A DNA stretch of 45,109 nt, from NCBI GenBank assembly GCA_034667685.1, contig JAXDQU010000039.1:1-45109 (forward strand). The letters run 5' to 3'. The position numbers and the translations under genes were made by a program. Shown here one piece after another: positions 1,920-45,109 of the stretch (position 1 is the first letter of the stretch; each line of letters begins with the position of its first letter). The notes under the pieces were generated by a model. That model did not search any database, had not been told where the DNA came from, and was given only the letters and a program-made list of their open reading frames with translations. The stretch comes from Thermoplasmata archaeon. Lineage in GTDB: Archaea; Thermoplasmatota; SW-10-69-26; JACQPN01; JAJPHT01.

Positions 1920-3338
1920 ATGGCCACGACGATGAGCACCGAGGTCCTCGTGATCGGCGCCGGCCCCGGAGGGTACGTGGCGGCGATCCGCGCGGCGCAG
2001 CTTGGGAAGAAGGTCCTCTGCGTCGAGAAGGAGAAGCTGGGCGGCGTGTGCCTCAACGTGGGCTGCATCCCGAGCAAGGCGCTCATCCACGCCGCGAAGG
2101 AGTGGCGCGCGCTCCACGGCGAGGCCGCGGAGATCGGCATCGAGGTCACGGGCGCGCGCATCGACTTCAAGAAGACGCAGGAGTGGAAGCGCGGCGTCAC
2201 CAACGGCCTCACCAACGGCATCGGCCAGCTCTTCAAGGCCAACAAGGTCGAGCCGCTCTTCGGGACGGCGACGTTCACCGGCCCGAACGCGGTCAACGTC
2301 AAGACCGCCAATGGTGATATCACCGTCCAGTTCCAGCAGTGCATCGTGGCGACCGGCAGCCGCCCCATCCAGATCCCCGGCTTCGCCTTCGACGGCCAGA
2401 AGGTCATCGACTCGACGGGCGCGCTGGACCTTGATATCATCCCGAAGGACCTCGTCGTCATCGGCGGCGGGTTCATCGGCCTGGAGATCGGCGCCGCGTA
2501 CGCCGCGCTGGGCAGCAAGGTCACGGTCGTCGAGATGATGGACCAGCTCCTGCCCGGCCAGGACCCCGAGATCGTGAAGGTCGTCGAGCGCCGCCTCAAG
2601 AAGGACGGCGTGTCGGTCTTCACGAAGGCGAAGGCCAAGGGCTTCGACGGCAAGGACGTGACGTTCGAGGTCGACGGCAAGGAGCAGAAGGTCCCCGCCG
2701 ACAAGGTGCTCGTGGCCGTCGGCCGCCGCCCCAACACCGACGCGCTCGCGCTCGACAAGGCCGGCGTGAAGGTCGGCGAGAAGGGCCTGATCCCGATCAA
2801 CGACAAGGCGCAGACCAACGTGCCGGGCATCTACGCCATCGGTGATATCACCGCGGGCCCCGCGCTCGCCCACAAGGCCAGCAAGGAGGGGCTCGTCGCG
2901 GCCGCGCACATCGCGGGCGACAAGGGCGCCGCGCTGGACTACAAGGCGCTGCCGTGGGCCGTCTTCGTGGAGCCCGAGATCGCCACCGTGGGCCTGACCG
3001 AGGATCAGGCGCGCGCCAAGGGCTACGAGCCCGTCGTCGCCAAGTTCCCGATGGCGGCGCTGGGCCGGGCCAAGAGCACCAACGCGACCGAGGGCTTCGT
3101 GAAGGTCGTCGCCGACAGGAAGACCGACCTCCTGCTGGGCGTCCACGTCGTGGGCGCCGAGGCGAGCAACGTCATCGGCGAGGCGGCGCTCGCCATCGAG
3201 ATGGGCGCCACCGCGCGCGACCTCGCGCTGACCATCCACACGCACCCGACGTTCCCCGAAGCGCTGATGGAAGCGGCCGAGGGGATCCATGGCGCGATGA
3301 TCCACGCGGCGAACCTGCCGCCGCGCGCGCCGCGGTAG
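1920..3338 (+). CDS. lpdA: Dihydrolipoamide dehydrogenase (E3)
   Basis: GAGPGG FAD motif, GGVCLNVGCIPSK redox disulfide, GGGFIG NAD motif, HTHPTFPE active site. Confidence 0.97.
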   Translation: MATTMSTEVLVIGAGPGGYVAAIRAAQLGKKVLCVEKEKLGGVCLNVGCIPSKALIHAAKEWRALHGEAAEIGIEVTGARIDFKKTQEWKRGVTNGLTNGIGQLFKANKVEPLFGTATFTGPNAVNVKTANGDITVQFQQCIVATGSRPIQIPGFAFDGQKVIDSTGALDLDIIPKDLVVIGGGFIGLEIGAAYAALGSKVTVVEMMDQLLPGQDPEIVKVVERRLKKDGVSVFTKAKAKGFDGKDVTFEVDGKEQKVPADKVLVAVGRRPNTDALALDKAGVKVGEKGLIPINDKAQTNVPGIYAIGDITAGPALAHKASKEGLVAAAHIAGDKGAALDYKALPWAVFVEPEIATVGLTEDQARAKGYEPVVAKFPMAALGRAKSTNATEGFVKVVADRKTDLLLGVHVVGAEASNVIGEAALAIEMGATARDLALTIHTHPTFPEALMEAAEGIHGAMIHAANLPPRAPR

Positions 3339-3384
3339 GCGCAGCGTTCATGTTCCCTCCGCCCATGGAGCGCGGAGGACCGGC

Positions 3385-4017
3385 ATGACGAACCCACCCG
3401 TCCACATCTGCGGCCGCGCCGTCGAGGGAGCCAGGCACATCTGCGCGTTCGTGCACTCGCGCGACGAGGAGTACGCCATCATGGCGCCCTACGTCAAGGA
3501 GGCCACGCGGCAGAACGAGCGCGTCGTGCAGATCATCAACGAGGACCTTCGCGCGGACCACAAGGCGCGCATGGCGAAGGCCGGCGTCGACGTCGAGAAG
3601 GCGGAGGCGTCGGGCCAGCTTTCCATCCTGCGCTGGGAGGACGCGTACCTCCAGGGCGGCTACTTCGACCACGACCGGATGCTCAACATGCTCCAGACGG
3701 CGATCCGCGAGCGCAAGGAGCTGGGCTACCCGCAGATGCGCGCCATGGCGAACATGGACTGGGCCCTGCGCGGCGCCCCGGGCACCGAGCACCTGCTGGA
3801 GTACGAGGCGCGCGCCAACTTCGTGAGCCGCACGACGAACGACGTGTTCCTGTGCTTCTACGACCTCAACAAGTTCCCCGCGAGCACGGTCGTCGACGTC
3901 ATGCGCACGCACCCCGCCGTCATCATCGGCGGCGTCTACCACGAGAACCCGTACTACGTCGAGCCGGAGACGCTCCTCGAAGAGCTTGTCGCCCGGGGCA
4001 AGGCGAAGCGCGCGTGA
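3385..4017 (+). CDS. MEDS domain sensor protein
   Basis: HICAFVHS, YLQGGYFD, LLEYEA, CFYDLNKF, DVMRTHP and NPYY pattern typical of MEDS domains. Confidence 0.85.
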   Translation: MTNPPVHICGRAVEGARHICAFVHSRDEEYAIMAPYVKEATRQNERVVQIINEDLRADHKARMAKAGVDVEKAEASGQLSILRWEDAYLQGGYFDHDRMLNMLQTAIRERKELGYPQMRAMANMDWALRGAPGTEHLLEYEARANFVSRTTNDVFLCFYDLNKFPASTVVDVMRTHPAVIIGGVYHENPYYVEPETLLEELVARGKAKRA

Positions 4018-5162
4018 CGCGCAGCCTCGGCGCCGACCCGATGCTCGCGGACGTCGTCGCCTTCACCTCGCTCCCCGGCCTCTGGGTGGGGCAGAGCCTC
4101 GATCGGGTCGCGCTCAGCCTCGCGCAGTCGCTGGAGCGCACCGTCCACGCCCGCGCCGTCGCGGTGCTCCTCGTGACGGAGGCGGGCACCGTCGAGCGCC
4201 GCGCGGGAGAGTCCGTCCTGCTCGACGACGCCGTGGAGCGCTGGCGCCGCAACGAGCCCATCGAGGACGCGCTGCGCTGCGACGTGGGCCCGATGGGCGC
4301 GCGCGGCGCGATCCTCCTCCACCCGGCCTCGTACGCGCCCGAGAAGCTCCACCTGGCGCGGCTGGCCGCGAACCTCGCCGACACCGCGCTGCGCGAGGCC
4401 GCGCTGGACCACCAGGTGGCGGCCACGCGCGAGACGATCCAGCGCCTCGAGAAGGCGAGCATGCTGGGCCAGCTCGTCAGCGGCGTCGCGCACGAGCTTC
4501 GCACGCCGCTCACCTACGCGGGCAACAACCTCTACCTCCTTCAGGGGCACCTCGCGCGGCTCGACATCCCGCCGGCGAGCCGCGAGCGCATCCAGGAGAT
4601 CCTCGCGGAGGTCGCCTCCGCCCACGAGCGGATCGAGCGCACCGTCGGCACGCTCCGCCGTCTCAACGGCGCGCGCCGCGCCGTGCGGGACGAGGTGCTC
4701 CTGAAGGACGTCGTCGCGGAGGCGGCCCGGCTCTTCTCGCTCACGAGCGTGGGCGCGGTCGACGTGCGCGCCGAGTTGGACGGCGAGGACGCGACGCTCG
4801 CGGACCCGATCGAGGTCCAGCAGGTCGCGCTCAACCTCCTCCAGAACGCCCGCGACGCGAGCCCGCCCGGGGGCCGGATCCGGCTGCGGACGTGGACCGA
4901 CGCGGACGGGGCGCACCTGCTCGTGGAGGACGAGGGGCCCGGCATCCCGCCCGACGTGCGGGCCCGCATGTTCGAGCCCTTCTTCTCGACCAAGCCGCAG
5001 GGCACGGGCATCGGCCTCTCCGTCGTGCGCCGCATCGCCGAGACGCACGGCGCGTCGATCCGCGTCTCCGACCGGGCGCCCCGCGGCGCGCGCGTGGAGG
5101 TCGTGTTCCCCCTCGCGCGGGTTCCGGCCGCCGCGCCGCCCGCCGCCGCGCCCTCCGCCTAG
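4014..5162 (+). CDS. Sensor histidine kinase (HisKA + HATPase)
   Basis: AHELRTPL H-box, NLLQNA N-box, DEGPGI G1, FEPFFSTK F-box, GTGIGL G2; GTG start overlaps the MEDS stop (GTGA). Confidence 0.9.
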   Translation: MTRSLGADPMLADVVAFTSLPGLWVGQSLDRVALSLAQSLERTVHARAVAVLLVTEAGTVERRAGESVLLDDAVERWRRNEPIEDALRCDVGPMGARGAILLHPASYAPEKLHLARLAANLADTALREAALDHQVAATRETIQRLEKASMLGQLVSGVAHELRTPLTYAGNNLYLLQGHLARLDIPPASRERIQEILAEVASAHERIERTVGTLRRLNGARRAVRDEVLLKDVVAEAARLFSLTSVGAVDVRAELDGEDATLADPIEVQQVALNLLQNARDASPPGGRIRLRTWTDADGAHLLVEDEGPGIPPDVRARMFEPFFSTKPQGTGIGLSVVRRIAETHGASIRVSDRAPRGARVEVVFPLARVPAAAPPAAAPSA

Positions 5163-5220
5163 GCACCGTTCCCTCGACGTACCAGAACGCACTCACGATG
5201 CCCAGGGCAGCGCGGGGCGC

Positions 5221-5688
5221 ATGGAAGCCCTCCTCGCGGCGCCGCGCCCGGTCGCGCCGCCCGCGGTCCTCGACCTGCCGCCCGTCCTCGACACGCCCCT
5301 GGGCCAGCGCCTCGTCGAGCGCCTGGCCCGCGTGCCGGCGTTCGACTGGTGCCACTGGGGTGAGGTCCTCGCCGGCGTCCGGCTCGCCGAGGCGGCGCCC
5401 GCTCTCCGCTTCGCGCAGGAGGGCCCCACGCGCGTCCGCCTCGCGGGCGACGACGAGGCCGAGGTCTGCGTCATCGGGCTGCTGCCGGGCCAGACGCTCG
5501 CGCACGCCGCGCACGGCCAGAGCGAGGGCATCCTGCACCTTCTCGCGGGGCAGGGGCGCTGCGAGGGAAACCGGCTCTGGGGCGGCGACCAGCTCGCGAT
5601 CGCGCCCGAGCAGCGGCGCGACGTGACCAACGACGGGCCCGGCGTCCTCGTGGCGATCGCGCTCTACGCGCCGCGGCTCGGGGCGTAG
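5221..5688 (+). CDS. Cupin-fold protein
   Basis: C-terminal LLPGQ..AHAAH..SEGILHLLAGQG..GD..IAP..RDVTNDG cupin-like pattern. Confidence 0.6.
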   Translation: MEALLAAPRPVAPPAVLDLPPVLDTPLGQRLVERLARVPAFDWCHWGEVLAGVRLAEAAPALRFAQEGPTRVRLAGDDEAEVCVIGLLPGQTLAHAAHGQSEGILHLLAGQGRCEGNRLWGGDQLAIAPEQRRDVTNDGPGVLVAIALYAPRLGA

Positions 5689-6416
5689 GCCGGGAACGAG
5701 AGCACGAAGCGCGTCCCCTGGTCCGGCGCGCTCCGGCAGACCATGCTCGCGCCGTGCGCCTCGACGATGCGCCGGACGATGGCGAGGCCGAGGCCGGGCG
5801 CCCCGGGCTTGGTGGTGTAGAACTCCTCGTACATCCGCGCCTGCACGTCGGGCGTCATGCCGATGCCGTCGTCCTCGACGAGCAGCAGCACGCGGTCCGC
5901 CTCGTGGCTCGTCGCGACGCGCAGCGTCCCCTCCGGCCCGATGGCCTGCGCGCCGTTCTCCAGGATGTGGAGCGCGGCCTGCTGCACGTGGACGCGCGCC
6001 GCGCGGATCGGCGGCGTGGGCGCGAGCGCGGCCTCCAGGCGCACGGCGGGATGCGCGGCGCGGAAGAGCGCCAGCGCCTCGTCGATGGCCTCGGGCAGCG
6101 CGACCAGCTCGCGCGGCGCGTCCACGCGCGCGAAGCGCTGCAGCCCTTCGACGAGGTGCGCGATCTGCGCCATGCCGTCCTGCGCCGCGGCGAGGTGGCC
6201 CGGCAGGTCGGCAAGCTCCGCGCTCAGCGAGCCCGCGCGCTCCAGGCGGCGCGCGATCATGGCGAGGTGGTTGGCCGTGACCGAGAGTGGCGTGCGGATC
6301 TCGTGGGCGACGCCCGTCGCCAACGTCCCCAACGCCGCGGCGCGCTCGCTCTGCGCGAGCAACGCCTCCAACCGATTCGCCGCCATCCGGGCTCCGGCTA
6401 ACGTCGTGGGGCCCAT
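5664..6416 (-). CDS. Histidine kinase with little or no input domain
   Basis: AHEIRTPL, ILENG, DDGIGM, FYTTK, GLGL boxes; start uncertain (6416 or 6386). Confidence 0.85.
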   Translation of the reverse strand: MGPTTLAGARMAANRLEALLAQSERAAALGTLATGVAHEIRTPLSVTANHLAMIARRLERAGSLSAELADLPGHLAAAQDGMAQIAHLVEGLQRFARVDAPRELVALPEAIDEALALFRAAHPAVRLEAALAPTPPIRAARVHVQQAALHILENGAQAIGPEGTLRVATSHEADRVLLLVEDDGIGMTPDVQARMYEEFYTTKPGAPGLGLAIVRRIVEAHGASMVCRSAPDQGTRFVLSFPAYAPSRGA

Positions 6417-6463
6417 AGCCCTGCCGGCGCCGCCACCAACATGATGCCCGTACAGCGGGATGG

Positions 6464-6808
6464 TTGCGCGTGGGCAGCGCGCGGGCCCTGGAGTCGTGGG
6501 GGAAGCACGGCCGCTTCTCGTATCGTGGCAACGTGAAGAACGGGACACGGATCATCCTCAGCCGCGAGAAGCACGTCGTCCTCGACGCCGAGACGTGGGC
6601 GAGGCTTCTCGCGCACTTCGCGCGCCGCACCGTGCCCATCGGCCTCTCGCGCCACCCGCCGCGCGACTCGCTGGGAGGCTGGCTCCAGGGGCGCGCGCAG
6701 GGCGAGGTGCTCGCGGCCTACGCCGGACCGATCCTCGTGCGCGAGGGGTACGCGCGGAGGCTGGACGACGAGATTCGGATCGAGGCGGAGCCCGATCCTT
6801 TGGGCTAG
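6464..6808 (+). CDS. Hypothetical protein (about 114 aa)
   Basis: Protein-like composition and GC3-biased codons; start uncertain. Confidence 0.65.
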   Translation: MRVGSARALESWGKHGRFSYRGNVKNGTRIILSREKHVVLDAETWARLLAHFARRTVPIGLSRHPPRDSLGGWLQGRAQGEVLAAYAGPILVREGYARRLDDEIRIEAEPDPLG

Positions 6809-6870
6809 GGGCTCTGGACTCAGGACTCTGGGCTCCGGAGCCCAGAGTCCTGAGCCCAGAGCCCTAGCCC
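6802..6870. repeat. Near-perfect ~69-bp palindrome built of 7-mer units (family B, REP-like)
   Basis: GGGCTAGGGGCTCTGGACTCAGGACTCTGGGCTCC | GGAGCCCAGAGTCCTGAGCCCAGAGCCCTAGCCC between convergent genes. Confidence 0.85.
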
Positions 6871-6873
6871 CGA

Positions 6874-7008
6874 TCACGACCGGACGCGCCCGAGCGCGAT
6901 GCCCGCATGCGCCGCGGCCTTCTGGTGCGTGGCGACCTGGGCCTGCATGACGTGGGGCGGCGCGGCGTCGAAGACGGCGCCGCACAGGAGGCAGCGGAGG
7001 GGGCTCAT
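6874..7008 (-). CDS. 44-aa putative C2H2-type zinc-finger microprotein
   Basis: Hand translation MSPLRCLLCGAVFDAAPPHVMQAQVATHQKAAAHAGIALGRVRS; CxxCG.xF then H-x5-H; below ORF-track cutoff. Confidence 0.6.
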   Translation of the reverse strand: MSPLRCLLCGAVFDAAPPHVMQAQVATHQKAAAHAGIALGRVRS

Positions 7009-7106
7009 GCGGCGAACGGCGACCTCAGGGGTCAAGGCCTTGCGGGTCCATCCGAAGGGCCGCTTCGGAGGACAAGCGTGATGGCGGATCCGCAGGATGG
7101 CGCGTC

Positions 7107-7616
7107 GTGCACCCCAACGCCGAGACGATCCGGCGCTTCTACGCCTGCTTCGCGGCGCGCGACGCGGAGGGCATGGCGGCGTGCTACGGGACGGAGGTCG
7201 TCTTCCGGGATCCGGTGTTTGGCGAGCTACGGGGTCGGCGCGCGGGCGACATGTGGCGGATGCTCGCGGGGCGCGCCGTGGACCTGAAGGTCGACGTCTC
7301 GGGCGTGGAGGCCGACGACGCGCGAGGCAAGGCGCGCTGGGTCGCCACGTACAAGTTCGGCCCGAAGGCGCGTCCCGTCCGCAACGTCATCGACGCGCGC
7401 TTCGCGTTCCACGACGGGCTCATCGTGCGCCACGAGGACTCGTTCGACTTCTGGCGCTGGTCCGCGCAGGCGCTCGGGCCCGCCGGCTCGCTGCTGGGCT
7501 GGACGCCCATGCTCCAGGCGCGCGTGCGCCGGAACGCTCTCGGCGGTCTGGATCGGTTTCAGCGCGGGGCCGCTCAACACGAAGCCACGAAGGCACGAAG
7601 CCACCAAGGCTCCTGA
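7107..7616 (+). CDS. SnoaL-like / NTF2 family protein
   Basis: IRRFYACF..D.EGMAACY...VVFRDPVFGEL..MWRML..HEDSFDFWRW pattern. Confidence 0.85.
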   Translation: MHPNAETIRRFYACFAARDAEGMAACYGTEVVFRDPVFGELRGRRAGDMWRMLAGRAVDLKVDVSGVEADDARGKARWVATYKFGPKARPVRNVIDARFAFHDGLIVRHEDSFDFWRWSAQALGPAGSLLGWTPMLQARVRRNALGGLDRFQRGAAQHEATKARSHQGS

Positions 7617-7652
7617 GACTTCGTGCTCTTCGTGGCTTCGTGCCTTCGTGTT
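7576..7652. repeat. Inverted repeat of CACGAAG(C/G) 8-mer units (family C)
   Basis: AACACGAAGCCACGAAGGCACGAAG pairs with CTTCGTGGCTTCGTGCCTTCGTGTT with 2 mismatches; between convergent genes. Confidence 0.85.
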
Positions 7653-7666
7653 CCGGCGGCCGGGAA

Positions 7667-8848
7667 TCAAGAAAGCCGACGGCTGACGACCTTCTCCAGG
7701 ATCGCCACCGCGTCGTCGACCTGCTGCCCCGTCACGATCAACGGCGGCGCGAGGCGGAGCACGTGGTCGCCGATGGCGTTGACCAGGAGGCCCGCCGCTT
7801 CCGCGTCGACCTTCACCTGCTTGGCGATCGGCTGCTCCAGCTCGACGCCCACGAGCAGGCCCAGGCCGCGCGTCTCCTTGACGCCGGGCACGCGCGCCTT
7901 GACCTGGGTGCGCAGGTAGTCGCCCTGCACGCTGGCGTTGTCGAGCAGGCGCTCGCGCTGGAGGACGTCGAGCGTGGCGAGCCCGGCCGCGGCGCCAAGC
8001 GGGTTGCCGCCGAACGTCGAGCCGTGGTCGCCGGGGTGGAGCAGCGCGGCGGCGCGTGCGTTGAGCAGCGCGGCGCCCACCGGGAAGCCCGACGCGATGC
8101 CCTTGGCGAGCGTGGTGATGTCAGGGCGGACGCCGAAGTGCTGCGAGGCCAGGAACTTGCCCGTGCGGCCCACGCCGGTCTGCACCTCGTCGGCGACGAG
8201 CAGCGCGTCGTTCAGCATGCAGAGGCGCTGGACGGCCTGCACGAACTCGGGCTTGAGCGCGCGCACGCCGCCCTCGCCCTGCACGAATTCCAGGAACACG
8301 GCGGCGACGGGCTGGCGCGCGAACGCCATCTCCAGCGCCACGATATCATTCGCCGGGACGTGGACGATGCCCTCGGGCAGCGGGCCGAAGTCCTTCTGGT
8401 ACTTGGGCTGGCCCGTGAGCGTGACGGTCGCGGTGGTGCGGCCGTGGAAGCTCTGGTCCAGCGCGATCACGACGGCCTCGGGGTGGGCCTTGGCGTGCGC
8501 GTGGCGGCGCGCGATCTTCAGCGCGGCCTCGTTGGCCTCCGCGCCGCTGTTGCAGAAGAACGCGCGGTCGTAGCCGGTGATGGCCGTGAGCCGCTCCGCG
8601 AAGCGCATGACGTTCTCCGTGGCGTAGAGGTTGCTGACGTGCATCAGCTTCTGCGCCTGGCGCGAGATCGCCGCGACGACCTCGGGGTGCGCGTGGCCGG
8701 TGCTGCACACGGCGATGCCCGCGATGAAGTCGAGGTAGCGCTTGCCCTGCGCGTCGAAGAGATAGCACCCTTCGCCGCGGTCGATCTGGAGCGTGGGCGT
8801 GGCGTACGTCGGCGCGAGCGCGCGCTCCCAGCGCGTCTTGAGGTCCAC
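7667..8848 (-). CDS. argD: Acetylornithine aminotransferase
   Basis: NSGAEANE, SFHGRT, VQGEGG, DEVQTG, TLAKG (PLP Lys), HGSTFGGNP; in arg operon. Confidence 0.93.
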   Translation of the reverse strand: MDLKTRWERALAPTYATPTLQIDRGEGCYLFDAQGKRYLDFIAGIAVCSTGHAHPEVVAAISRQAQKLMHVSNLYATENVMRFAERLTAITGYDRAFFCNSGAEANEAALKIARRHAHAKAHPEAVVIALDQSFHGRTTATVTLTGQPKYQKDFGPLPEGIVHVPANDIVALEMAFARQPVAAVFLEFVQGEGGVRALKPEFVQAVQRLCMLNDALLVADEVQTGVGRTGKFLASQHFGVRPDITTLAKGIASGFPVGAALLNARAAALLHPGDHGSTFGGNPLGAAAGLATLDVLQRERLLDNASVQGDYLRTQVKARVPGVKETRGLGLLVGVELEQPIAKQVKVDAEAAGLLVNAIGDHVLRLAPPLIVTGQQVDDAVAILEKVVSRRLS

Positions 8849-8851
8849 GGC

Positions 8852-9625
8852 TCAGGCCTCCGTGAAGAGCGTGCCGGCGTCGTGGCCTTCGGCGAGAAGC
8901 GTGAGCCCGGGCTCGTCGAGCACGCGCACGCGGGAGACGCCGGCGGCGAGCGCGTCGAGCGCTCCGCGGATCTTGGGGATCATGCCTCCGGAAGCCACGC
9001 CGTCGTGGATGAGCGCTTCGGCTCCCGCGCGGGTCAGGACGTCGATCGGCTTGCCCGTCGCGCCGCGCACCGCGGGCACGTCGGTCAGGAGCAGCAGGTC
9101 GTGCGCCTTGAGCGCGACGGCGACGGCGCTGGCGACCTCGTCCGCGTTGCAGTTGAGCGGCCCGTGCGCGTCGACCGCGATCGGTCCCACCACGGGGGTG
9201 ACGCCGTTGAACGCGAGGTGGCGCAGCAGGTCGGCGTTGACGTCCGTGACGGTGCCGACGCGGCCGAGCTGCGCGTCCTTGACGACGCCGCGCGTCGTGG
9301 CCGCGTCGCGTCCCGAGAGCGAGACGGCGGGCGAGCCCGCGACGGTCAGCGCGTGGGCGAGCGTCTTCCCGACGTGGGCGAAGACGGGCTCCGCGATCTC
9401 CAGCGTCTTCTCGTCCGTGACGCGCAGGCCGTGGACGAAGCGCGCCTCGATGCCCGCGGCGGCGAGCGCGCTCGTGACCTGGGCCCCGCCGCCGTGGACG
9501 ACGACGAGGCGGCGCCCGGAGGCGCGCAGCGCGGAGAGGCGTTCGGCGAGGGCGGCCATGCCCGAGGGCGTCTCGATGCTGCGGCCGCCGAGCTTGACGA
9601 CGGTGAGTCCAGGGTTGTGTGCCAT
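8852..9625 (-). CDS. argB: Acetylglutamate kinase
   Basis: VVKLGG, VHGGG, GLRVTD, NCNAD, GGMIPK motifs. Confidence 0.93.
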   Translation of the reverse strand: MAHNPGLTVVKLGGRSIETPSGMAALAERLSALRASGRRLVVVHGGGAQVTSALAAAGIEARFVHGLRVTDEKTLEIAEPVFAHVGKTLAHALTVAGSPAVSLSGRDAATTRGVVKDAQLGRVGTVTDVNADLLRHLAFNGVTPVVGPIAVDAHGPLNCNADEVASAVAVALKAHDLLLLTDVPAVRGATGKPIDVLTRAGAEALIHDGVASGGMIPKIRGALDALAAGVSRVRVLDEPGLTLLAEGHDAGTLFTEA

Positions 9626-9634
9626 GATATCAGA

Positions 9635-11862: not shown

Positions 11863-11939
11863 GTCGAGCCCACTTTACGGAGTCACGGGCTTCAGCGTGA
11901 CGACGGAATTGGCGGGTTTCTGGTCACACGTGTCCGATT

Positions 11940-12478: not shown

Positions 12479-12537
12479 TGGCCGCGGAGTTTCCCCCCGA
12501 GGCCAATCGTCAAGTGGCGCCACTCCTTCGCCGCGCC

Positions 12538-12753
12538 GTGCGCGTGCACGCGACGCTGCATGGGTTCCCGGAGAAGGAGCGGGAGCTGGACCTCGCGGCC
12601 GGGGCCATCGCCGACGACGCGCCGCGCGCGTGCGGCATCCGCCCCGAGCTGGTCCTCGTGTTCCGCGACGAGAGGCCCATCGCCGGCGACGAGCCGCTGC
12701 GCGAGGGCGACCGCGTGCGCATCCTCCGCGTCGTGAGCGGGGGCGCCCGATGA
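12538..12753 (+). CDS. Ubiquitin-like small archaeal modifier (SAMP2/MoaD/ThiS family) ending GG-AR
   Basis: 71 aa beta-grasp pattern, VLVFRDERPI...LREGDRVRILRVVSGG-AR; resembles haloarchaeal SAMP2. Confidence 0.85.
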   Translation: MRVHATLHGFPEKERELDLAAGAIADDAPRACGIRPELVLVFRDERPIAGDEPLREGDRVRILRVVSGGAR

Positions 12754-35980: not shown

Positions 35981-36062
35981 GCTCGATCTTCGGCGCCCTT
36001 CGAGCGCCCCGGCGCCCCCCGAAGCCCTCATGCCTGAAGCCCGCTCTGGCCGCCGCGTGACG

Positions 36063-37028: not shown

Positions 37029-37066
37029 GGCGCAGGGTTTTTTCACGCGCGCGCAAACGCGCGTTC

Positions 37067-38062: not shown

Positions 38063-38823
38063 CCCGGGGGCCCGCGCGGCGGCGGGGGCGCGCTGCTGAT
38101 ATCAAACGTCACGGAGGCCACGTTCGTCCCGATGGGCGGCGCCTCCTGCTTGGCGCGCAGGTCCTTGAGCCGGACCACCTCGACCTGCTGCCCCTGGCCC
38201 CGGAGGATCGCGAGCATGCCGTCCACGTGCCCGTCCCCCACGACGGCCACGACGCGCTGGCCCGTCTTGGCGATCTCCACGAGGGCGCGCGCCATGTGCT
38301 CGTTGCGCTCGTCGAGCAGCACGCGCTTGAGCGTGGGGAACTTCTTGCCCATCTCGGCGAAGTAGGACGCGTAGTCCTCCTGCATCTGGGCGACCTGCTT
38401 CTCGACGTTCTTGCTCGGGATGATGACGCCCAGGAAGGCGCTGCCCGCGAGGCGCATCTTCTCGCCGAAGCGCATCTCCTTGACGAGCCGCTGGAACGTG
38501 CGCTGCGCGTCCGCGTCGATGAGCGCGAGGGGGACGCCGAGCGCCTGCGCCTCGTTGGCCGCCGCGAGCATCTCGTCGCCCGCCTCGACGCCGTACTCGT
38601 TGGCGACCTTCGTCTGGAAGTCGGCGAGCATGCGGTAGACGATCGGCGCGCCCTTGCGGTCCTGGCTCTTGTTGCGCAGCGCGTGGTAGCGCGGCGGGTC
38701 GAGCTCGATGGCGACGACGTGCGGCGCCCGCTGCCGGATCTCCTGGCGCACGCGCGCGCCGATGTCGAAGACGTGGCCCGTGCCCACGAGGGTGATCTGG
38801 CCGGGGGCCGGCGTCTCGTCCAT
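38059..38823 (-). CDS. traB: TraB/GumN domain protein
   Basis: ITLVGTGHV, VAIELD..R, G.EM..A, LLDERN..MA, VAVVGDGH. Confidence 0.88.
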   Translation of the reverse strand: MDETPAPGQITLVGTGHVFDIGARVRQEIRQRAPHVVAIELDPPRYHALRNKSQDRKGAPIVYRMLADFQTKVANEYGVEAGDEMLAAANEAQALGVPLALIDADAQRTFQRLVKEMRFGEKMRLAGSAFLGVIIPSKNVEKQVAQMQEDYASYFAEMGKKFPTLKRVLLDERNEHMARALVEIAKTGQRVVAVVGDGHVDGMLAILRGQGQQVEVVRLKDLRAKQEAPPIGTNVASVTFDISSAPPPPRGPPG

Positions 38824-38927
38824 CGCGCGCGCAAGGTGGGCCCCCATCTTGGAGGTTTTGACCCATCCGGCTGCGCAGGCGCAAAGCCCTTCTCCGGCCC
38901 GCCCGCTGGCCGCGCGGGCACACCCCC

Positions 38928-39437
38928 ATGCGCACCGCGATCCTGTCCAGCGTCCTGCTCGTCGCCGCCGCGTTCGTCGGCGTCACCTTCGCCACCCCCG
39001 GCGCCTCCGCCTGCCCGCAGCCCCAGGAGGGCCCCTCGCCCTGCGACCCGACGACCTGCCTGCCGGAGTCCGTCCAGCCGGTCTGCGTCCACGGCTGCCT
39101 GCGGTACTGCCCCGAGGCGAGCGTCAGTCTCCACTGCGTCGGCACCGCGACGAACCGCGTCTGTTACGACCCGTACGACCTCTCGTGCTTCGTGGGCGTC
39201 CAGTTCTCCGTCTCCGCGGTCTCGGGCAGCGCGTGCGTCGACTGGTGCAAGCTCATCCCCTGCCCGGGCCCCGTCATCGGCTCCAGCATCGGCTCGTGCG
39301 TCACGCCCATCTCGGGCGGCGACATCGAGGAGACGTACTGCGTCCACCCCGGCGACCACGCGTGCATCATCGAGCACCGCGAGGTCACGTTCACCGGCAC
39401 GACCGACACGTGCACCCCCGTGCCCGGGCTGCCGTAG
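38928..39437 (+). CDS. Secreted disulfide-rich protein (16 Cys)
   Basis: Signal peptide ending PGASA; six-Cys N-terminal module plus two C-x2-P-x-D-x2-C-x15-C repeats. Confidence 0.8.
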   Translation: MRTAILSSVLLVAAAFVGVTFATPGASACPQPQEGPSPCDPTTCLPESVQPVCVHGCLRYCPEASVSLHCVGTATNRVCYDPYDLSCFVGVQFSVSAVSGSACVDWCKLIPCPGPVIGSSIGSCVTPISGGDIEETYCVHPGDHACIIEHREVTFTGTTDTCTPVPGLP

Positions 39438-39465
39438 ATCGGCCTGCGCCGCCTCCGGCGGGAGG

Positions 39466-39518
39466 CATCCCGAATCACGCTCTTTTCGTCCTGATTCGGG
39501 TCTTCGTGATTCGGGATG
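39466..39518. repeat. 14-bp perfect inverted repeat (family F), possible bidirectional terminator
   Basis: CATCCCGAATCACG ... CGTGATTCGGGATG with an extra TGATTCGGG copy inside; between convergent genes. Confidence 0.7.
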
Positions 39519-39541
39519 GTCTCGCGCGGAGCGCGCCCACG

Positions 39542-39916
39542 CTACTCGCGCTCCAGCACGTGCGGCCGGCTCATGCCGAGGATCGCCAGCTCGTTGCCGC
39601 TGGGGTCCCGGAAAAGATAGCACGGCCCGTCGGGCACCTCGAAGCGCCCGCCCTCGGGCGCCCACCCCTTCTTGCGCAGCTCCTTCTCGGCCTTGGCCAG
39701 GTCGGGCACGCCGAAGATCGGCAGCACGTTGGGCGCCGTGCGGTGCCCCGCGAGGACGTAGAGCGGCGGGCGCTCCGCCAGCGCGACGGCCGCGACTCGC
39801 GTGCCGAACTCCTGGAAGTCCCAGACCACGCGGGCGCCGAGGACGTCCGTGTAGTACGCGAGGTCGCGCGCGACGTCGGCGCTCGCGACGTAGAGGTATT
39901 CGAGACGGCCCAGCAT
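39542..39916 (-). CDS. VOC / glyoxalase family protein
   Basis: YLYVASADV...YYTDVLGA..F.V.DL....L..GPCYLFRDPSGNEL. Confidence 0.85.
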   Translation of the reverse strand: MLGRLEYLYVASADVARDLAYYTDVLGARVVWDFQEFGTRVAAVALAERPPLYVLAGHRTAPNVLPIFGVPDLAKAEKELRKKGWAPEGGRFEVPDGPCYLFRDPSGNELAILGMSRPHVLERE

Positions 39917-39994
39917 GTCCCGGCGAAGGCCGGCCAAGCGCTTAAGCGAGGCGCGGCGGCTGCCCGGCGCGTGTTCCGCGCGGCAAGCCGGGCG

Positions 39995-40456
39995 ATGGCG
40001 GGCTTCGGCCTGATCGCGCTCGGGCAGCTTTGCTATCTCCTGGGCGGCCTCCAGTTCGGCGGCCGTCCGTTCGACCTGCTGCTCACGCTCGTGAGCCTCC
40101 TGGCCGCCGCGTGGGCCGCGTTCCACCTCCTGCGCGCGAGCGAGGCGGCGGACGCGACGCGCGCGGTCGCGTGGGGGCTCACGGCCTTCGCAGTGGCGCA
40201 GGGCATCGACTTCCCCTCGACCGTGGGCAGCGGCGTCAACCCCTTCACGATCGGGTTCGCGCTGCTCGTGGCGGGCGCGACCGTCGCCGCCGTGGCCGCG
40301 TGGCTCCGGTCCTCCACGACGCTGCGCGTGGGGGCCGGCATCGCCGCCGCGGGCACGGCGACCTACGTCCTGGGCGGCGCGCTCGCGGGGCTCAACGTCT
40401 TCTCCATCGGCGTCGTCGCCAGCGTCGCCGGCTGGATCCTCGTCGCGCTCGCCTGA
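39995..40456 (+). CDS. Small multi-pass membrane protein
   Basis: About six short hydrophobic helices in a threefold internal repeat (PFDL / PFTIG / VFSIG). Confidence 0.7.
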   Translation: MAGFGLIALGQLCYLLGGLQFGGRPFDLLLTLVSLLAAAWAAFHLLRASEAADATRAVAWGLTAFAVAQGIDFPSTVGSGVNPFTIGFALLVAGATVAAVAAWLRSSTTLRVGAGIAAAGTATYVLGGALAGLNVFSIGVVASVAGWILVALA

Positions 40457-40464
40457 GGCGGGGC

Positions 40465-41706
40465 TCAGCCGCGGCGGCGCAGGACCAGCAGGCCCAGCGC
40501 CAGCGCGCCCAGGAGCGCCGCGGCCTCGAAGCCCGGAGTCGCCTTGCTCGGGGCGGCGGGCGTGCTCGACGCGGGCGTCGTGGCGCCGGCGTCCGTCGCG
40601 GACGTGGGCGTCGTCGTGCCCGTGCCGGCGCCCGTGCTGGCGGCCGAGACCGTGATGTCGTGGTCGCTGAAGTGCGGCACGCTCACGGCGATGCTCACGC
40701 CCTCGTCGGTGCGCGTGACGTTGACGCCGGCGCGGGCGCCGCTGAGCGCGTCGTCGAGCGTCGCGTTGGGGAGCGTCTCGTTGTCCAGGGTGACGACCAC
40801 GGTCGCGTTGGCCGGGATCGTGTCGTTGCCGAGCTGCACGAGGACGGAGCGGCCCTCGGGCGTGTCGCTGCTGACGCGGATCGTGGCGTGGCCGTGCGAG
40901 AGCGAGGTCGCGTGCGCGCTGACGCCGAGGTCGGTCGCGTCGTCCAGGGGCGAGCCGTCCGCGTCGACGGCGGAGACGACGGCGCCGACGTGGCCGTGGG
41001 CCGCCGCCGCGATGGCCGCGTGGAGGCCGGAGGCCATGAGCTTCGACTCGGTGGTGTGGTACGCGAAGAGCAGCGAGGCGTGCGGGTCGAGCGCGACCTT
41101 GATGGTGCCGTTCGAGACGCTCGTGAACGTGCCGTTGCCCGCGATCGTCAGGTGGCCGTGCGAGGTGGCGAGGTTGAGCTTCACGGTCTGGTTCGTCGTG
41201 TCGTTCGTGATGGTCACGTTGGGCGCGAGCGCGAAGGTGAGGTTCAGGCCCGCGTCCTCCGCGCGCCAGTTGAGCAGCGCGAGCGGGTTGTTGTGGACCA
41301 TGAGCGTCGCGTTGTCGCCCTCGAGGCGCAGCACGCTGCCCGTCACGCGCACGTCGTCGGTGGCGTTGAACGGCGTGGGCGTGATGGAGGCGAAGACGGG
41401 GATCGTCGCGTTGTTCGAGACGACGTCGTAGTGGGTGATGACGCCCGTGGCGTTGTCGAGGCCGAAGCTCACGAAGCGGCCCGTCGCGGTGCCGTTGGCG
41501 TAGGCGAGCTTGGCGAAGAGGCGGTGGCTCTCCGCGGCGGCGAGGCCGTGGCCGCGGGCGCTCTCCGAGAGGTTCGCCCAGGGCCCGTCGGGGTGCGTGC
41601 GGGCGGACGCGTTGCCGTCGCGGCCCGCGGGGGGCGCGGCGAGGGCGGCGAGCGACGTCGCAAGGAGCGCGACGCCGACGAGAAGGACGGTCATGGTTCG
41701 GCGCAT
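40465..41706 (-). CDS. PGF-CTERM cell-surface glycoprotein (archaeosortase substrate)
   Basis: Signal peptide; many N-x-T/S sequons; Thr-rich linker; TPGFEAAALLGALALGLLVLRRRG C-terminus. Confidence 0.9.
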   Translation of the reverse strand: MRRTMTVLLVGVALLATSLAALAAPPAGRDGNASARTHPDGPWANLSESARGHGLAAAESHRLFAKLAYANGTATGRFVSFGLDNATGVITHYDVVSNNATIPVFASITPTPFNATDDVRVTGSVLRLEGDNATLMVHNNPLALLNWRAEDAGLNLTFALAPNVTITNDTTNQTVKLNLATSHGHLTIAGNGTFTSVSNGTIKVALDPHASLLFAYHTTESKLMASGLHAAIAAAAHGHVGAVVSAVDADGSPLDDATDLGVSAHATSLSHGHATIRVSSDTPEGRSVLVQLGNDTIPANATVVVTLDNETLPNATLDDALSGARAGVNVTRTDEGVSIAVSVPHFSDHDITVSAASTGAGTGTTTPTSATDAGATTPASSTPAAPSKATPGFEAAALLGALALGLLVLRRRG

Positions 41707-42066: not shown

Positions 42067-42067
42067 G

Positions 42068-43750
42068 CTATCGGTAGCTCAAGAGCGGCGCGACCTGCTT
42101 GGCGACGGCCGGGTCGTCGAGCGCCTTCGCCACGTCCTCGTCGCTGCGGAAGGGCCGCTTGAGCGAGAGCCGCACCGCGCGCTTCTTGCCCACGCCCGGC
42201 AACGCCTCGATGGCCTTCAGGTTCGCGTGGTTGATATCGAACGGGACGGCGACCCCGGTGAGGCTGCGGAAGCCGTAGTCCGTGACCGCCACGTCGACCC
42301 AGGCGTTGGCGGGGATCTCGTAGGGGATGCCCACGAGCATCGCGTACGTCCCGATGGGGCGCCCGAACGTCGTCTTGCCCTCGTGCTGCTCGGTGAAGAC
42401 GCGCCTGAGCACGGTGCCCTGGGGGAACATCGCGCGAAGGAGCGGCTGGTCGATCTCCTCGCGCACGAAGCGCTTGAAGTCGAGGAAGCGCTTCTGGTCG
42501 ACGCCCTGCGACTCCATGCCGTTCATGACGACCTTGCGGATGTTGATGCGGCGCGCCCACAGGCCGCGCGCGACGTACTCGCGCAGGAACGCCTTGTTCA
42601 GCTCGTAGGTCTCGGCGCCCTCGCCGGGCAGCCCCGCGATGAAGTTGAGGCCGGGCAGGAACGCCGGGAAGCCGTTCGCGCCGCGCAGCTTGCCGTGGCG
42701 GTTGAGGATCTCCGCGGCCTGGAGGACGATCTCGGCGTCCGCGTTGAGGTTGTTCGCCTCCTTCACCGCCGGGTCGGCGCTCTCCAGGCCGAACGCCGCG
42801 ATGTTGCCGTCCGTCATGTAGCGCACGACGAGCTTCGTCACCGCATCGGAGGCCTCCGGGTTCGCGGCGACGACGGCGGGATCCACGTTGTCGAGGTGCA
42901 GCGTGTGCAGGCCGGGCGCCGCGCCGTGGATGCCGCGCAGCAGCGCCTCGATCGCGGCGGGGTCCGGCTCCGGCGTCGGCGTCTCGCCAAGCCCCTTCGC
43001 GTGATAGCTGTAGAAGCACGCCTGGCCGCCGAGGCGGAAGTTGACGACGCCCTCGCGCGCGAGCGCCGCGACCTCGGCGACGACGTCCTCGACCGGGCGG
43101 AACGCGGGCTTCCCCTCCTTGGGCTCCAGGCAGAACGCGCAGCCGCCGTTGACGTAGCGCACGCAGCCGTGGTACGTGTCGAGCTCGGCCGTAAGCGGCT
43201 GGGGCATGTCGGGGTGGTCGCGCACCACGAACGCGCCGCGCACGCTCCAGTCGCGCCACTCGGCGAACGTGCGCTTGCGGTTCGCCTTGCCGTACCCCCC
43301 GATGATATCATGGAGGAGCGCGTCGCCGTGCAGCCGCGCGCGGTGCGTGAAGACCTTGTCGAGGTCCTCCTTGCCCGCGGGCGGAAGGCCGCCGCCGCGC
43401 CCGAAGCCGTAGAGCGCCGAGGCGCCCGCGATCATGGTCTCGCCCGGCACCAGGCGTACTACGTCCTGCGCCTCGCGCCACGACACGGGCGTCCCGCGCA
43501 GGTACTTGCCCGGCACGAGCGCGCCCGCGATCATCACGAGCAGGTCCGCGTGGCGCACGAGGTCGTTCTTCGGCGATCCGCGGCGCCACTCGTCGATCGT
43601 GAGGTAGCGCACCTCGGCCTCGGGGTCGGCGGCCTTCGCGGCGCCCGCCATGTAGCGCGCGTGCGGGCTCAGGTACGGAGGGACGCCGAAGTTGGCCGGC
43701 TCGTCGACGTAGCCGTCGAAGAGGAGAATGCGCCTCTTCAGAGGCGCCAC
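42068..43750 (-). CDS. Radical SAM protein with TRAM-like and C-terminal helix-hairpin-helix regions (COG1031-like)
   Basis: DGYVDEPANFGVPPY, GC-x7-CAFC cluster motif, AFGLESAD, LPGVGKKRA HhH; start uncertain. Confidence 0.85.
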   Translation of the reverse strand: MAPLKRRILLFDGYVDEPANFGVPPYLSPHARYMAGAAKAADPEAEVRYLTIDEWRRGSPKNDLVRHADLLVMIAGALVPGKYLRGTPVSWREAQDVVRLVPGETMIAGASALYGFGRGGGLPPAGKEDLDKVFTHRARLHGDALLHDIIGGYGKANRKRTFAEWRDWSVRGAFVVRDHPDMPQPLTAELDTYHGCVRYVNGGCAFCLEPKEGKPAFRPVEDVVAEVAALAREGVVNFRLGGQACFYSYHAKGLGETPTPEPDPAAIEALLRGIHGAAPGLHTLHLDNVDPAVVAANPEASDAVTKLVVRYMTDGNIAAFGLESADPAVKEANNLNADAEIVLQAAEILNRHGKLRGANGFPAFLPGLNFIAGLPGEGAETYELNKAFLREYVARGLWARRINIRKVVMNGMESQGVDQKRFLDFKRFVREEIDQPLLRAMFPQGTVLRRVFTEQHEGKTTFGRPIGTYAMLVGIPYEIPANAWVDVAVTDYGFRSLTGVAVPFDINHANLKAIEALPGVGKKRAVRLSLKRPFRSDEDVAKALDDPAVAKQVAPLLSYR

Positions 43751-43894: not shown

Positions 43895-44116
43895 CTATTC
43901 CACGTCGAGCGCCCGCGCCTCGCCCGACTCCAGCAGCTCGTCGATGCGCCCCTGCGCGGCGTCGAGGCGGGCGCGGAGCCTGCGCGCGAGGGCGACGCCC
44001 TCCTCGAAGCGCTTCATCGCCTCGTCGAGGCCCAGCTCGCCGCCCTCGAGCTGCTGCACGATGGCGTCCAGCGCCTCGATCTCGTCCTCGAACGTCGTCT
44101 CCGCCTTCTTCGCCAT
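43895..44116 (-). CDS. xseB: Exodeoxyribonuclease VII small subunit
   Basis: FEDEIEALDAIVQQLE.GEL.LDEAMKRFEEG..L; directly after xseA. Confidence 0.92.
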   Translation of the reverse strand: MAKKAETTFEDEIEALDAIVQQLEGGELGLDEAMKRFEEGVALARRLRARLDAAQGRIDELLESGEARALDVE

Positions 44117-44117
44117 G

Positions 44118-45109
44118 CTATCGTTCCTCCACGCGCGCGGGCAGGTCGCCGTCGCGCAGCTTGACCGTGATCCGGGACCCGGGCGGCGCGTCGGCCGGGC
44201 TGCGCAGCACCTTGCCCTCGCGCGTCGCGATGGCGTAGCCGCGCCCCAGCACCGCGAGGGGCGAGAGCGCGTCGAGCCGCGCCGCGCGCTGGGCGAGCAG
44301 GTCCGCCTCGCGCCCGACGCGGGACGAGAGCGCCTTCGCCATGCGGGAGAGCGCGTCGTCCACTTCCTGCTGGAAAGCCGGCACGAGGTCCTCCAGCGCG
44401 CGGACCAGGCGCGACTCCGCCTCGCCGATCGCGTCGAGCAGCGCGCCCGCGTCCGGCGCCAGCAGCTCGGCCGCGGCGGTGGGCGTGCTCGCGCGCGCGT
44501 CGGCCGCGAAGTCGCAGAGGGTATAGTCTGTTTCGTGTCCCACCGCAGACACGATGGGGACGCGGCACGCGGCGACCGCGCGCACGAGCGTCTCCTCGTT
44601 GAACGCCCAGAGGTTCTCCAGCGCGCCCCCGCCACGCGCCACGACGATGACGTCCACGTCCGCGCGTTCGAGGCGGCGCAGCGCGGCCACGAGGCTCGCG
44701 GCGGCCTCGTCGCCCTGCACGCGCGCGTCGGCGATGAGCAGCCTCGCGGCGGGGTTGCGGCGCTTGGCCGTGCGGACGATATCACGAAGGACCGCGCCCG
44801 AGAGGCTCGTGACGACGCCGATGCGCTGCGGGAAGCGCGGCAGCGGACGCTTGCGCTCCGGCGCGAAGAGCCCCTCGGCCTCCAGCCGGCGGCGCATCTG
44901 GTCGAACGCGAGCGCGAGCGCGCCCACGCCGACCGGGCGCAGGTCGCGCACGACGACCTGCAGCTCGCTGCGCTTGGCGTACACGCCCACCGCGCCGCGC
45001 GCCAGCACCTCCATGCCCTCCTGGGGCGCGAACTTGACGCGCGCGTTCTGCTGGCGGAACATCGCCGCGTGGATCACCCCCGTCTCGTCCTTGAGGTCGA
45101 AGTACCAGT
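44118..45109 (-). CDS. xseA: Exodeoxyribonuclease VII large subunit (5' end outside window)
   Basis: YFDLKD, EGLF..RKRPLP.FP..IGVVTS..GAV.RDI, RGGG..E.LW.FN.E, SAVGHETD..D.RA.TPTAAAE, RGY. Confidence 0.95.
   Translation of the reverse strand, partial: WYFDLKDETGVIHAAMFRQQNARVKFAPQEGMEVLARGAVGVYAKRSELQVVVRDLRPVGVGALALAFDQMRRRLEAEGLFAPERKRPLPRFPQRIGVVTSLSGAVLRDIVRTAKRRNPAARLLIADARVQGDEAAASLVAALRRLERADVDVIVVARGGGALENLWAFNEETLVRAVAACRVPIVSAVGHETDYTLCDFAADARASTPTAAAELLAPDAGALLDAIGEAESRLVRALEDLVPAFQQEVDDALSRMAKALSSRVGREADLLAQRAARLDALSPLAVLGRGYAIATREGKVLRSPADAPPGSRITVKLRDGDLPARVEER

Follow-up and report, generated by a model that had tools for sequence, protein, structure and literature searches.

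The role and origin of hyper-abundant genomic words, such as the highly iterated palindrome HIP1 (GCGATCGC) of cyanobacteria, have been a question for three decades. In the part of Elhai (2015, PMC4390886) drawn on here, HIP1 reaches observed/expected ratios of 15–300 and densities of 300–2700 per Mb, and is linked to an orphan methyltransferase and biased repair. The portion used of Xu et al. (2018, PMC5861425) proposes a function in chromosome structure, with sites that are conserved and periodic at 10–90 kb. Partial texts of two further sources report that HIP1 raises natural transformation in a way that depends on methylation (bioRxiv 10.1101/2024.09.10.611283) and that it co-varies with DNA-transfer genes (PMC13756078). 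Here we describe the octamer TGATATCA and its one-letter twin TGATAGCA, together TGATAKCA, in a contig of 45,109 nucleotides from a Thermoplasmata archaeon (JAXDQU010000039.1, assembly GCA_034667685.1; the whole contig, our C39, is hereafter called the window), in the rest of its genome and in its order. The pressure behind it acts on the whole word at the level of DNA, is lineage-specific and ongoing, and suffices for the fixation of rare codons and of conservative amino-acid replacements.

This word shares many features with HIP1. Both are palindromic octamers, enriched tens-fold (here 34- to 54-fold) in genes and spacers at the level of DNA. Both are restricted to a lineage with word-free relatives, have patterned one-letter variants, and have a function that is unexplained. 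However, the host here is archaeal and the word is AT-rich in a genome of 71% guanine plus cytosine (GC). Its density is also about 10-fold lower (109 per Mb, against the 300–2700 per Mb given in the part of the HIP1 source cited above), and it is confined to one genus, whereas HIP1 is phylum-wide. No co-distributed cognate methyltransferase was found here, none being genus-restricted among the families searched, and a non-palindromic twin is equally part of the family. Finally, the sites are not detectably conserved between species in 400 kb of one relative, whereas the HIP1 sites are described as conserved in the portion of the literature used.

The uptake signal sequences (USS) of Pasteurellaceae and the DNA uptake sequences (DUS) of Neisseriaceae provide a second comparison. 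Maughan, Wilson and Redfield have reportedly set out a drive model for such sequences, and Findlay and Redfield are said to have treated their effect on the proteome. Like USS and DUS, the archaeal word is short and lineage-specific with dialects, is spread randomly in both orientations, brings rare codons and conservative amino-acid changes, and is scarce in recently acquired DNA; in both cases drive is expected. However, USS and DUS are 9–12 bp long, non-palindromic and about 10 times denser. We know of no uptake sequence in archaea.

Two further systems act on short words. Chi and KOPS/SRS are polar 5–8-mers read by RecBCD/AddAB and FtsK/SpoIIIE. Chi is likewise an over-represented octamer found about once per 5–10 kb, which a repair or motor complex recognises on the DNA, and is in effect a mark of 'self'. 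However, Chi and KOPS are polar and replication-skewed, whereas the main word here is a palindrome and the twin shows no orientation clustering apart from that given by gene strand. In Escherichia coli, Vsr acting with Dcm leaves an excess of CCWGG and a deficit of its T-variants. Sequence-specific repair can in this way raise a cognate word and lower its near-cognates, as is seen here for CGACATCA and GGACATCA. However, the E. coli effect is far weaker, the direction here is toward A/T, and Vsr was not found in the window's genome.

A first reading of the window, made from the letters alone, stated that its author knew of no description of such a word in archaea. A literature search, with subscription journals and supplements outside its coverage, is in agreement: for archaea, it found neither TGATATCA nor any highly iterated palindrome or uptake sequence reported. 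GATATC is named in one preprint, only as a methylation motif common with Methanoperedens. Among words of this kind, the present one, which is archaeal and AT-rich, as young as one genus and accompanied by a degenerate twin, is new. It is an independent and recent archaeal counterpart of HIP1 and of DNA-uptake words.

Enrichment across the genome

The genome that contains the window (G000) consists of 3,481,428 bp in 124 contigs (longest 167 kb) at 71.1% GC. The host had been called archaeal from the window, and its small-subunit ribosomal RNA scores 1498 bits with an archaeal model compared with 1086 bits with a bacterial one. Genes were predicted with our own simple codon-usage caller, which gave 3467 genes covering 86% of the DNA and is not a curated annotation.

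The main word occurs 378 times in G000, compared with 4.0, 3.1, 2.0 and 11.0 copies expected under Markov models of order 0, 1, 2 and 3, and ranks top by observed/expected among 8-mers with at least 50 copies. GATATC that lacks the T and A flanks is close to expectation. The sequence-only reading had named two outcomes that would dispose of the signal, namely its absence from the rest of the genome and its recovery by a shuffle that preserves codons and amino acids. The genome-wide count excludes the first. With regard to the second, shuffling synonymous codons inside each of the 3467 genes leaves 5.13 ± 1.86 copies (at most 9 in 30 shuffles) compared with 306 observed coding sites, a 54-fold enrichment. 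Non-coding DNA (508 kb, 66% GC) contains 72 copies where an order-2 model predicts 1.4, a 52-fold enrichment; non-coding sequences one letter off the word are 2.7-fold enriched and those two letters off 1.05-fold. Because the coding and non-coding enrichments are equal, the signal is genome-wide and independent of coding. The palindromic octamer exceeds composition-aware nulls by at least 15-fold, as expected of a HIP1-like word. Its presence in genes and spacers and on either strand is that of a DNA-level signal and not of a peptide or RNA motif.

The claim that the sites do not always encode Asp-Ile is true, but exceptions are rare. A total of 297 sites lie in the frame xxT GAT ATC Axx, where 5.25 are expected, compared with 7 in the frame xTG ATA TCA; 44 lie at gene borders and 30 are intergenic. 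This preference arises because reading in either of the other two frames would bring in the very rare ATA codon or, on one strand, a TGA stop. Occupancy is even along the length of genes.

The word, its twin and near-variants

The twin (TGATAGCA, or TGCTATCA on the other strand) has 329 copies in G000 and is 34-fold enriched in coding DNA. The enrichment is seen in three frames and both orientations: xTG CTA TCA occurs 202 times against 0.53, T GAT AGC A 66 times against 0.72, and TGC TAT CA 31 times against 7.6. The description of the signal as a palindrome holds for the main word but not for the twin, a member of the same family that is the commoner of the two words in two of five species. 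The core is TGATAKC, with A favoured at position 8. Summed over strands, TGATATC is followed by A, G, C and T in 756, 164, 52 and 29 cases, and TGATAGC by A, T, G and C in 329, 130, 129 and 67 cases. Other one-letter variants are 1.4- to 13-fold enriched in coding DNA, and G2 and C7 are never replaced. Beyond the eight letters, the flanks hold codon periodicity only.

Precursors two letters off are depleted, with CGACATCA at 0.51 and GGACATCA at 0.46 of expectation. In Asp-Ile-A contexts, T1 and T4 occur together in 297 cases, T1 alone in 34, T4 alone in 65, and neither in 233. All eight letters are read together, in a strongly cooperative manner. The doubly changed palindrome TGCTAGCA is not enriched, with 3 copies in G000. 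It contains CTAG, which is scarce in the closest species (71 copies in 400 kb of 72% GC DNA), and this scarcity fits its near absence.

The twin core GCTATCA is reached in contexts that leave position 6 or positions 5 and 8 free, and almost never in those that leave position 4 free (GCT precedes ATC-A in 7 of 765 cases). The same asymmetry is present in non-coding DNA, where GCTANCA with C, G or A at the open position is found 14, 8 and 12 times, compared with 145 and 84 for GCNATCA with C or G; for GANATCA the counts are T 190, C 40, G 60 and A 33. A path-dependent mechanism was considered and dropped, because TpA is generally rare: the bonus of the palindrome outweighs the TpA cost, and the weaker bonus of the twin does not. 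The idea that the word supplies off-frame stops ('ambush') was also rejected, as TGATAACA is not enriched.

Effects on codons, proteins and gene junctions

Where constraints hold the sequence one or two letters from the word, the remaining letters are replaced until it is complete. Completion is seen in genes, at stop/start junctions and in spacers. The word fills 52% of x-Asp-Ile contexts and 31% of x-Asp-Ser(AGY) contexts that are followed by A, 22% of Leu/Val/Met-Leu-Ser(TCN) contexts, and 31 of 33 contexts in which Cys-Tyr is followed by Gln or His. Rare codons are employed for this: GAT accounts for 8% of Asp codons, and CTA and TCA stand at about 1% or less. Before ATC-A, an NNT codon is used by Asp alone, in 57.6% of cases compared with 7.5% elsewhere. 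CTA-TCA pairs make up 241 of the 592 CTA codons and 241 of the 537 TCA codons. Tyr is written TAT in 72% of the contexts NGC-Tyr-CA (n = 377) and 95% of the contexts NGA-Tyr-CA (n = 60), compared with 6% elsewhere. CGA, which supplies 1.75% of Arg codons, encodes the Arg in 48 of 166 contexts in which Arg-Tyr is followed by Gln or His.

Protein sequence is also affected. The codon after Asp-Ile starts with A in 38.1% of cases, compared with 15–23% after 14 other dipeptides, and the frequency of Asp-Ile followed by an A-codon is doubled. At operon junctions of the form TGA-NNNN-ATG, the spacer is TATC in 15 of 54 cases (28%). Altogether 69 of the 378 sites abut an ATG, and many of these follow GG and so overlap GGTGAT, which we infer to be Shine-Dalgarno-like. 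Among genes ranked by GC at third codon positions (GC3), occupancy is 39% in the lowest quintile, 34% in the highest and 49–63% in the others, and genes of the lowest quintile have half the site density.

Placement and likely foreign DNA

The main word occurs once per 9.2 kb, or 109 times per Mb. Gaps between sites are near exponential (coefficient of variation (CV) 0.98), with 6.0% below 500 bp compared with 5.3% expected. The twin was examined for orientation: 131 of 233 neighbouring pairs are co-oriented, compared with 123.8 ± 7.1 given gene strand, which indicates no clustering. A replication-related orientation skew of the Chi/KOPS kind is therefore not found, the main word being palindromic and the twin showing no clustering beyond gene strand.

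Large contigs carry the expected numbers of sites with two exceptions. Contig C42 (62.6 kb, 62–69% GC), possibly an extrachromosomal or integrated element, has 1 site where 6.8 are expected. Its genes include an extra Orc1/Cdc6 gene and an open reading frame (ORF) of 3597 amino acids, and 6 of its 10 large ORFs have no Pfam match. Contig C118 (67% GC), which contains a defence-type island, has 4 sites where 8.8 are expected.

Distribution among relatives and turnover

Fifteen genomes of the order were compared: five of the genus (G000 to G004) and ten from nine other genera. Several are incomplete (72–100%), but the gaps in count are too large for incompleteness to matter; as kin, these genomes are non-independent samples. 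The main word occurs 378 times in G000, 210 in G003, 141 in G002, 111 in G001 and 53 in G004, compared with 0–7 times in the ten genomes of other genera. For the twin, in both orientations, the counts are 329, 151, 229, 72 and 63 in the same order, and 1–10 in the ten others. G003 is the closest species to G000, and 400 kb of it was used for comparison. Outside one local repeat family, around CCCTGAAACCCCC and itself over-represented, the two words rank above all others there by observed/expected; with that family included, they rank first and fourth to fifth. G003 was deposited as a 'Proteobacteria bacterium' metagenome-assembled genome (MAG). Its C5 methyltransferase is 92% identical to that of G000 and it has the same word bias, and it is probably a mislabelled archaeal bin.

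Individual sites turn over rapidly. Only 6 of the 39 G000 sites that have an orthologous place in the 400 kb of G003 are identical there. In the reverse direction, 16 of 24 G003 sites have a G000 orthologue and 6 of these 16 are identical. Conservation of sites in relatives, which the first reading had proposed as a check, is thus present in part, but not detectably above background: 36% of the 8-mer positions differ between the two species, compared with 19% of 120 flanking bases. Changes at codon-aligned pairs include double synonymous replacements (NNC GAC ATC to NNT GAT ATC) and G to T at position 1. At gained sites, Val or Leu is changed to Ile, Ala or Ser to Thr, and Ala to Asn, while CGC to AGG keeps Arg. 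Transversions account for 20 of 76 differences at positions 1, 4, 5 and 8, and most of the replaced letters are C to T or G to A. A transition-only (deamination) model is ruled out by the changes CGC to CGA, CTC to ATC and G to T.

Of 26 Asp-Ile-A contexts that the two species share, 4 have the word in both, 5 in G000 only, 3 in G003 only and 14 in neither (odds ratio 3.7, p = 0.19). Where G000 has gained the context itself, the word occupies 12 of 21 places. In this small sample, the word is derived, has been gained independently in each species and is still being gained.

Sites in the window

All 14 GATATC sites reported by the sequence-only reading are present in the window, and all 14 have a 5' T or a 3' A, as it had stated. 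In 100 dinucleotide-preserving shuffles, GATATC occurred 2.19 times on average and 6 times at most, and no shuffle reached 14. Nine of the sites are perfect (shuffle mean 0.00) and five are one letter off, as CGATATCA or TGATATCG. The 14 sites and the single copy of the twin are as follows, with gene strands in brackets; G007 is the outgroup.

2315–2322: TGATATCA in a dihydrolipoamide-dehydrogenase-like gene (1920–3338, +), as GGT GAT ATC ACC; the closest species has GGC GAC GTC TCC.
2432–2439: TGATATCA in the same gene (+), as CTT GAT ATC ATC; relatives have CTC GAG GAS GTG or TTC GAG ACG GTG.
2843–2850: TGATATCA within CGGTGATATCACCG, in the same gene (+); Asp-Ile is kept in 5 of 5 aligned relatives, and G007 and G003 have GGC GAC ATC AC.
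8341–8348: one-off CGATATCA in a class-III aminotransferase gene (7667–8848, −), where the gene sense is TGATATCG, AAT GAT ATC GTG; relatives have AAC GAC GTC GTC or similar.
9625–9632: TGATATCA at the junction of an ArgJ-family gene and an amino-acid-kinase gene, abutting an ATG (TGATATCATG on the − strand).
11102–11109: one-off TGATATCG in a semialdehyde-dehydrogenase (ArgC-like) gene (10864–11847, −), where the gene sense is CGATATCA; G003 and G002 have the twin core GCTATCA there.
12778–12785: TGATAGCA on the − strand, the single twin copy.
14275–14282: one-off CGATATCA, bordering a small predicted gene (14280–14543, −).
18304–18311: TGATATCA in a gene for a pyridoxal-phosphate-dependent enzyme (17972–18886, −); the aligned position lacks the word in G003, G004 and G007.
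19413–19420: TGATATCA in a VTT/PAP2 membrane-protein gene (18910–20148, −).
29212–29219: TGATATCA in a gene of 882 amino acids with C-terminal helix-turn-helix domains (27434–30082, +).
38097–38104: TGATATCA in a TraB/PrgY/GumN-family gene (38059–38847, −).
42232–42239: one-off TGATATCG in a radical-SAM gene (42068–43750, −), gene sense TTC GAT ATC AAC; G001 and G004 have TTC GAC ATC AAC, and G007 has TTC GAC GTC AAC.
43303–43310: TGATATCA in the same radical-SAM gene (−), as CAT GAT ATC ATC; G001 has CAT GAT ATC CTT, G004 CAC GAC ATC CTC, and G007 CAC GAC CTC CTC.
44777–44784: one-off CGATATCA in a gene at 44118–45107 (−), gene sense CGT GAT ATC GTC; relatives have CGC GAC followed by ATG or GTC, or similar.

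Aligned relatives exist for six of the nine perfect sites, and five of these six lack the word in relatives. The exception is 9625, the sole window site common to congeners (G001, G003 and G004, all three that align there), which is absent in G007. G007 never carries the word at an aligned window site and has a GC-rich form instead. The gain at 2315 comes with Val to Ile and Ser to Thr changes relative to the closest species, and the site at 2432 is a gain in the window species with several amino-acid changes. The gene that carries both had been named lpdA from its letters, and its dihydrolipoamide dehydrogenase domains bear this out. The proposal that some sites extend to longer palindromes applies to 2843, where CGGTGATATCACCG is a perfect 14-bp palindrome, but such extension is not general, since flanks across the genome show codon periodicity only.

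Contigs from an independent soil run (X2) match the window exactly over the sites at 9625, 11102, 14275 and 18304, so at these four places an artefact of a single assembly is ruled out. When contigs of four soil runs were compared with window positions 1–20000, none of the 40 variants listed (of 1448) falls in the word, in a comparison where 85% likeness mixes in other organisms. Positions 7667–11847 form an arginine-biosynthesis operon, with the class-III aminotransferase, amino-acid kinase, ArgJ and ArgC-like genes.

Possible origins of the word

The sequence-only reading had likened the signal to HIP1 and to uptake sequences. The data agree with a genome-wide signal of this kind, which acts at the DNA level, is equal in coding and non-coding DNA, occurs on either strand independently of gene position, and belongs to one lineage. 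Our favoured explanation, which we put forward tentatively and by analogy, is that TGATAKCA may be an uptake-, Chi- or self-like genomic word of a soil Thermoplasmatota genus, read by a putative protein that would bias inheritance during DNA exchange or repair. The USS/DUS-like pattern, the word-poor, likely foreign DNA, the random spacing and the tie of HIP1 to transformation point to such a tag; random spacing is what a tag needs and also what drive gives. The lineage-specific shaping of codons and proteins and the scarcity in foreign DNA are likewise those of an uptake sequence. The putative sequence-specific protein would read the word on double-stranded DNA, probably as a dimer, with TGAT as the half-site and C tolerated at position 3 in one half. 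Reading would give word-carrying alleles a transmission advantage; in the version that we prefer, the reader would act when cells or genome copies exchange or repair DNA by recombination. The word would then accumulate by molecular drive, weak selection or both, and recently acquired DNA would lack it. A bolder form of this proposal is that TGATAKCA could be the first archaeal self-recognition or uptake word, read by a genus-specific receptor or recombination factor between wall-less cells and spread by drive within the last speciation events. We regard this form as doubtful.

Several observations weigh against an exchange or repair tag. ComEC (PF03772) was not found in any of the 15 genomes and DprA (PF02481) in none of the five genus genomes, whereas USS and DUS need the type IV pilus, ComEC and DprA. 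The profile controls were positive in 10 (ComEC) and 11 (DprA) of 14 reference genomes. The absence of these proteins excludes only bacterial-type uptake; archaeal uptake systems are poorly known. FtsK/SpoIIIE was likewise found in none of the five genus genomes, and no reader was found among the families searched. Site sharing between G000 and G003 is not above the level of independent gain in the small sample of 26 contexts, and therefore gives no positive evidence that selection conserves existing sites. This uncultured lineage is not known to exchange DNA, and the uptake and Chi words known to us are not palindromic. Finally, drive, selection and biased repair predict the same patterns, and the data do not separate them.

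The main rival is methylation-linked biased mismatch repair, Elhai's model for HIP1, in which an orphan methyltransferase marks the word, repair converts near-cognates, and the word has no function of its own. The search for a cause covered a handful of families by profile, e.g. PF02086, PF01555, PF00145 and PF02384. Two conserved orphan methyltransferases are indeed present in the lineage, in G000 an N4-cytosine/N6-adenine enzyme (PF01555) on contig C106 and a C5 enzyme (PF00145) on contig C63. The mismatch endonuclease NucS/EndoMS is present as well. The great excess of the full word over one-off forms and the depletion of precursors fit conversion of near-cognates, and fast turnover without excess conservation fits replenishment rather than maintenance.

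However, orthologues of both enzymes occur throughout the order, word-free relatives included (58–66% identity for PF01555, 44–92% for PF00145), with both conserved enzymes at 58–68% identity in word-free relatives. Neither has a genus-specific target-recognition segment, that of the C5 enzyme showing no genus-specific replacement. Three further methyltransferase genes, on contigs C97, C103 and C118, are found in G000 only, and the D12 class (Dam/M.EcoRV, PF02086) gave no convincing match in any of the five genus genomes. The neighbours of the two conserved genes gave no lead; one small ORF appears, by eye, to be of glyoxalase type. The methylation link raised at first is accordingly not borne out among the families searched. 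On the repair side, Vsr is clear only in G003 among the five genus genomes, with a 22-bit sub-threshold match in G004 and none in G000. A MutS-like match is weak (27–31 bits) and alike in ingroup and outgroup, and NucS/EndoMS is also present in both alike. The share of transversions (20/76) does not fit simple deamination. The model is weakened by the lack of a co-distributed methyltransferase, and we consider it possible but unlikely.

An EcoRV-type restriction-modification target, with a D12 methyltransferase, a nuclease and avoidance of the site, does not describe this word either, as the site is in excess. The EcoRV nuclease (PF09233) was found in none of the five genus genomes, in a search that had no working positive control.

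A less probable explanation than biased repair is binding by a nucleoid-associated protein, or by one that organises or segregates chromosomes, with the sites maintained through selection on chromosome structure. An 8-bp palindrome would suit a dimeric DNA-binding protein, one site every 9.2 kb matches chromosomal interaction domains in scale, and coding and non-coding enrichments are equal. However, the short-range spacing over the 124 contigs is Poisson-like and shows no regular placement, so that the nucleoid or segregation role suggested from the window gains no support from it. Sites are also not conserved between species beyond chance, copy number differs 7-fold among congeners, and the filling of nearly all permissive contexts would not be accounted for.

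A neutral, context-specific mutational hotspot, caused by polymerase or lesion bias with no reader protein, is very unlikely. Most of the replaced letters at positions 1, 4, 5 and 8 are C to T or G to A, and an AT-rich word in a GC-rich genome lies in the direction of universal mutation bias. However, all eight letters matter in a strongly cooperative way, the changes include transversions and multi-step synonymous routes (CGC to AGG, CGC or CGG to CGA), amino-acid changes have been fixed that create the context, and close relatives with matching GC content are free of the effect. The remaining readings are a by-product of coding or codon usage, an assembly artefact, and a dispersed repeat or mobile element; the 79% of sites in one frame as Asp-Ile might speak for them. 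They are already refuted by the codon-preserving shuffle (5 versus 306), by the twin's enrichment in several frames and by the enrichment in non-coding DNA. In addition, TGA stops in other frames explain the frame preference, rare codons are used, the flanks are unrelated, hairpin repeats are not adjacent (3 of 69 loci), and an independent run has identical contigs over four sites.

Significance

HIP1 is phylum-wide and ancient, and the gene behind it is therefore hard to isolate. The graded series of 53–378 copies in five species, together with ten word-free relatives, is a natural experiment for the reader and for site gain and loss. If the word does prove to be an archaeal uptake or self word, this series would allow the responsible gene to be found by phylogenetic profiling, which has not been possible for HIP1. 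The case also shows how far one word can reshape a genome, in its codons, tripeptides and operon junctions. In addition, the word can serve as a marker of composition when these MAGs are binned or screened for foreign DNA.

Other observations

The island on contig C118 contains, at about 30000–41200, a row of genes for a DUF499 protein, an ORF of 473 amino acids that matches no family, a methyltransferase-like protein with DUF1156 and a helicase of the SNF2/NOV_C type; a gene with a TIR domain lies close by. In a search with PF02086, the other genus genomes have no counterpart even of the weak match by which the methyltransferase-like gene is marked. In G003, two Vsr-family genes on contigs C8 and C27 adjoin extra C5 methyltransferase matches found in that genome only; these look like mobile 5-methylcytosine modules.

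A link between the word and a set of intergenic hairpins was considered and rejected, as only 3 of the 69 hairpin loci have the word within 50 bp. These elements consist of tandem 9-bp units (CACAGAGGA-like) and are represented in the window at 21552–21610. The associated word CACAGAGG belongs to the second most over-represented word family of G000, and 255 of its 257 hits are intergenic.

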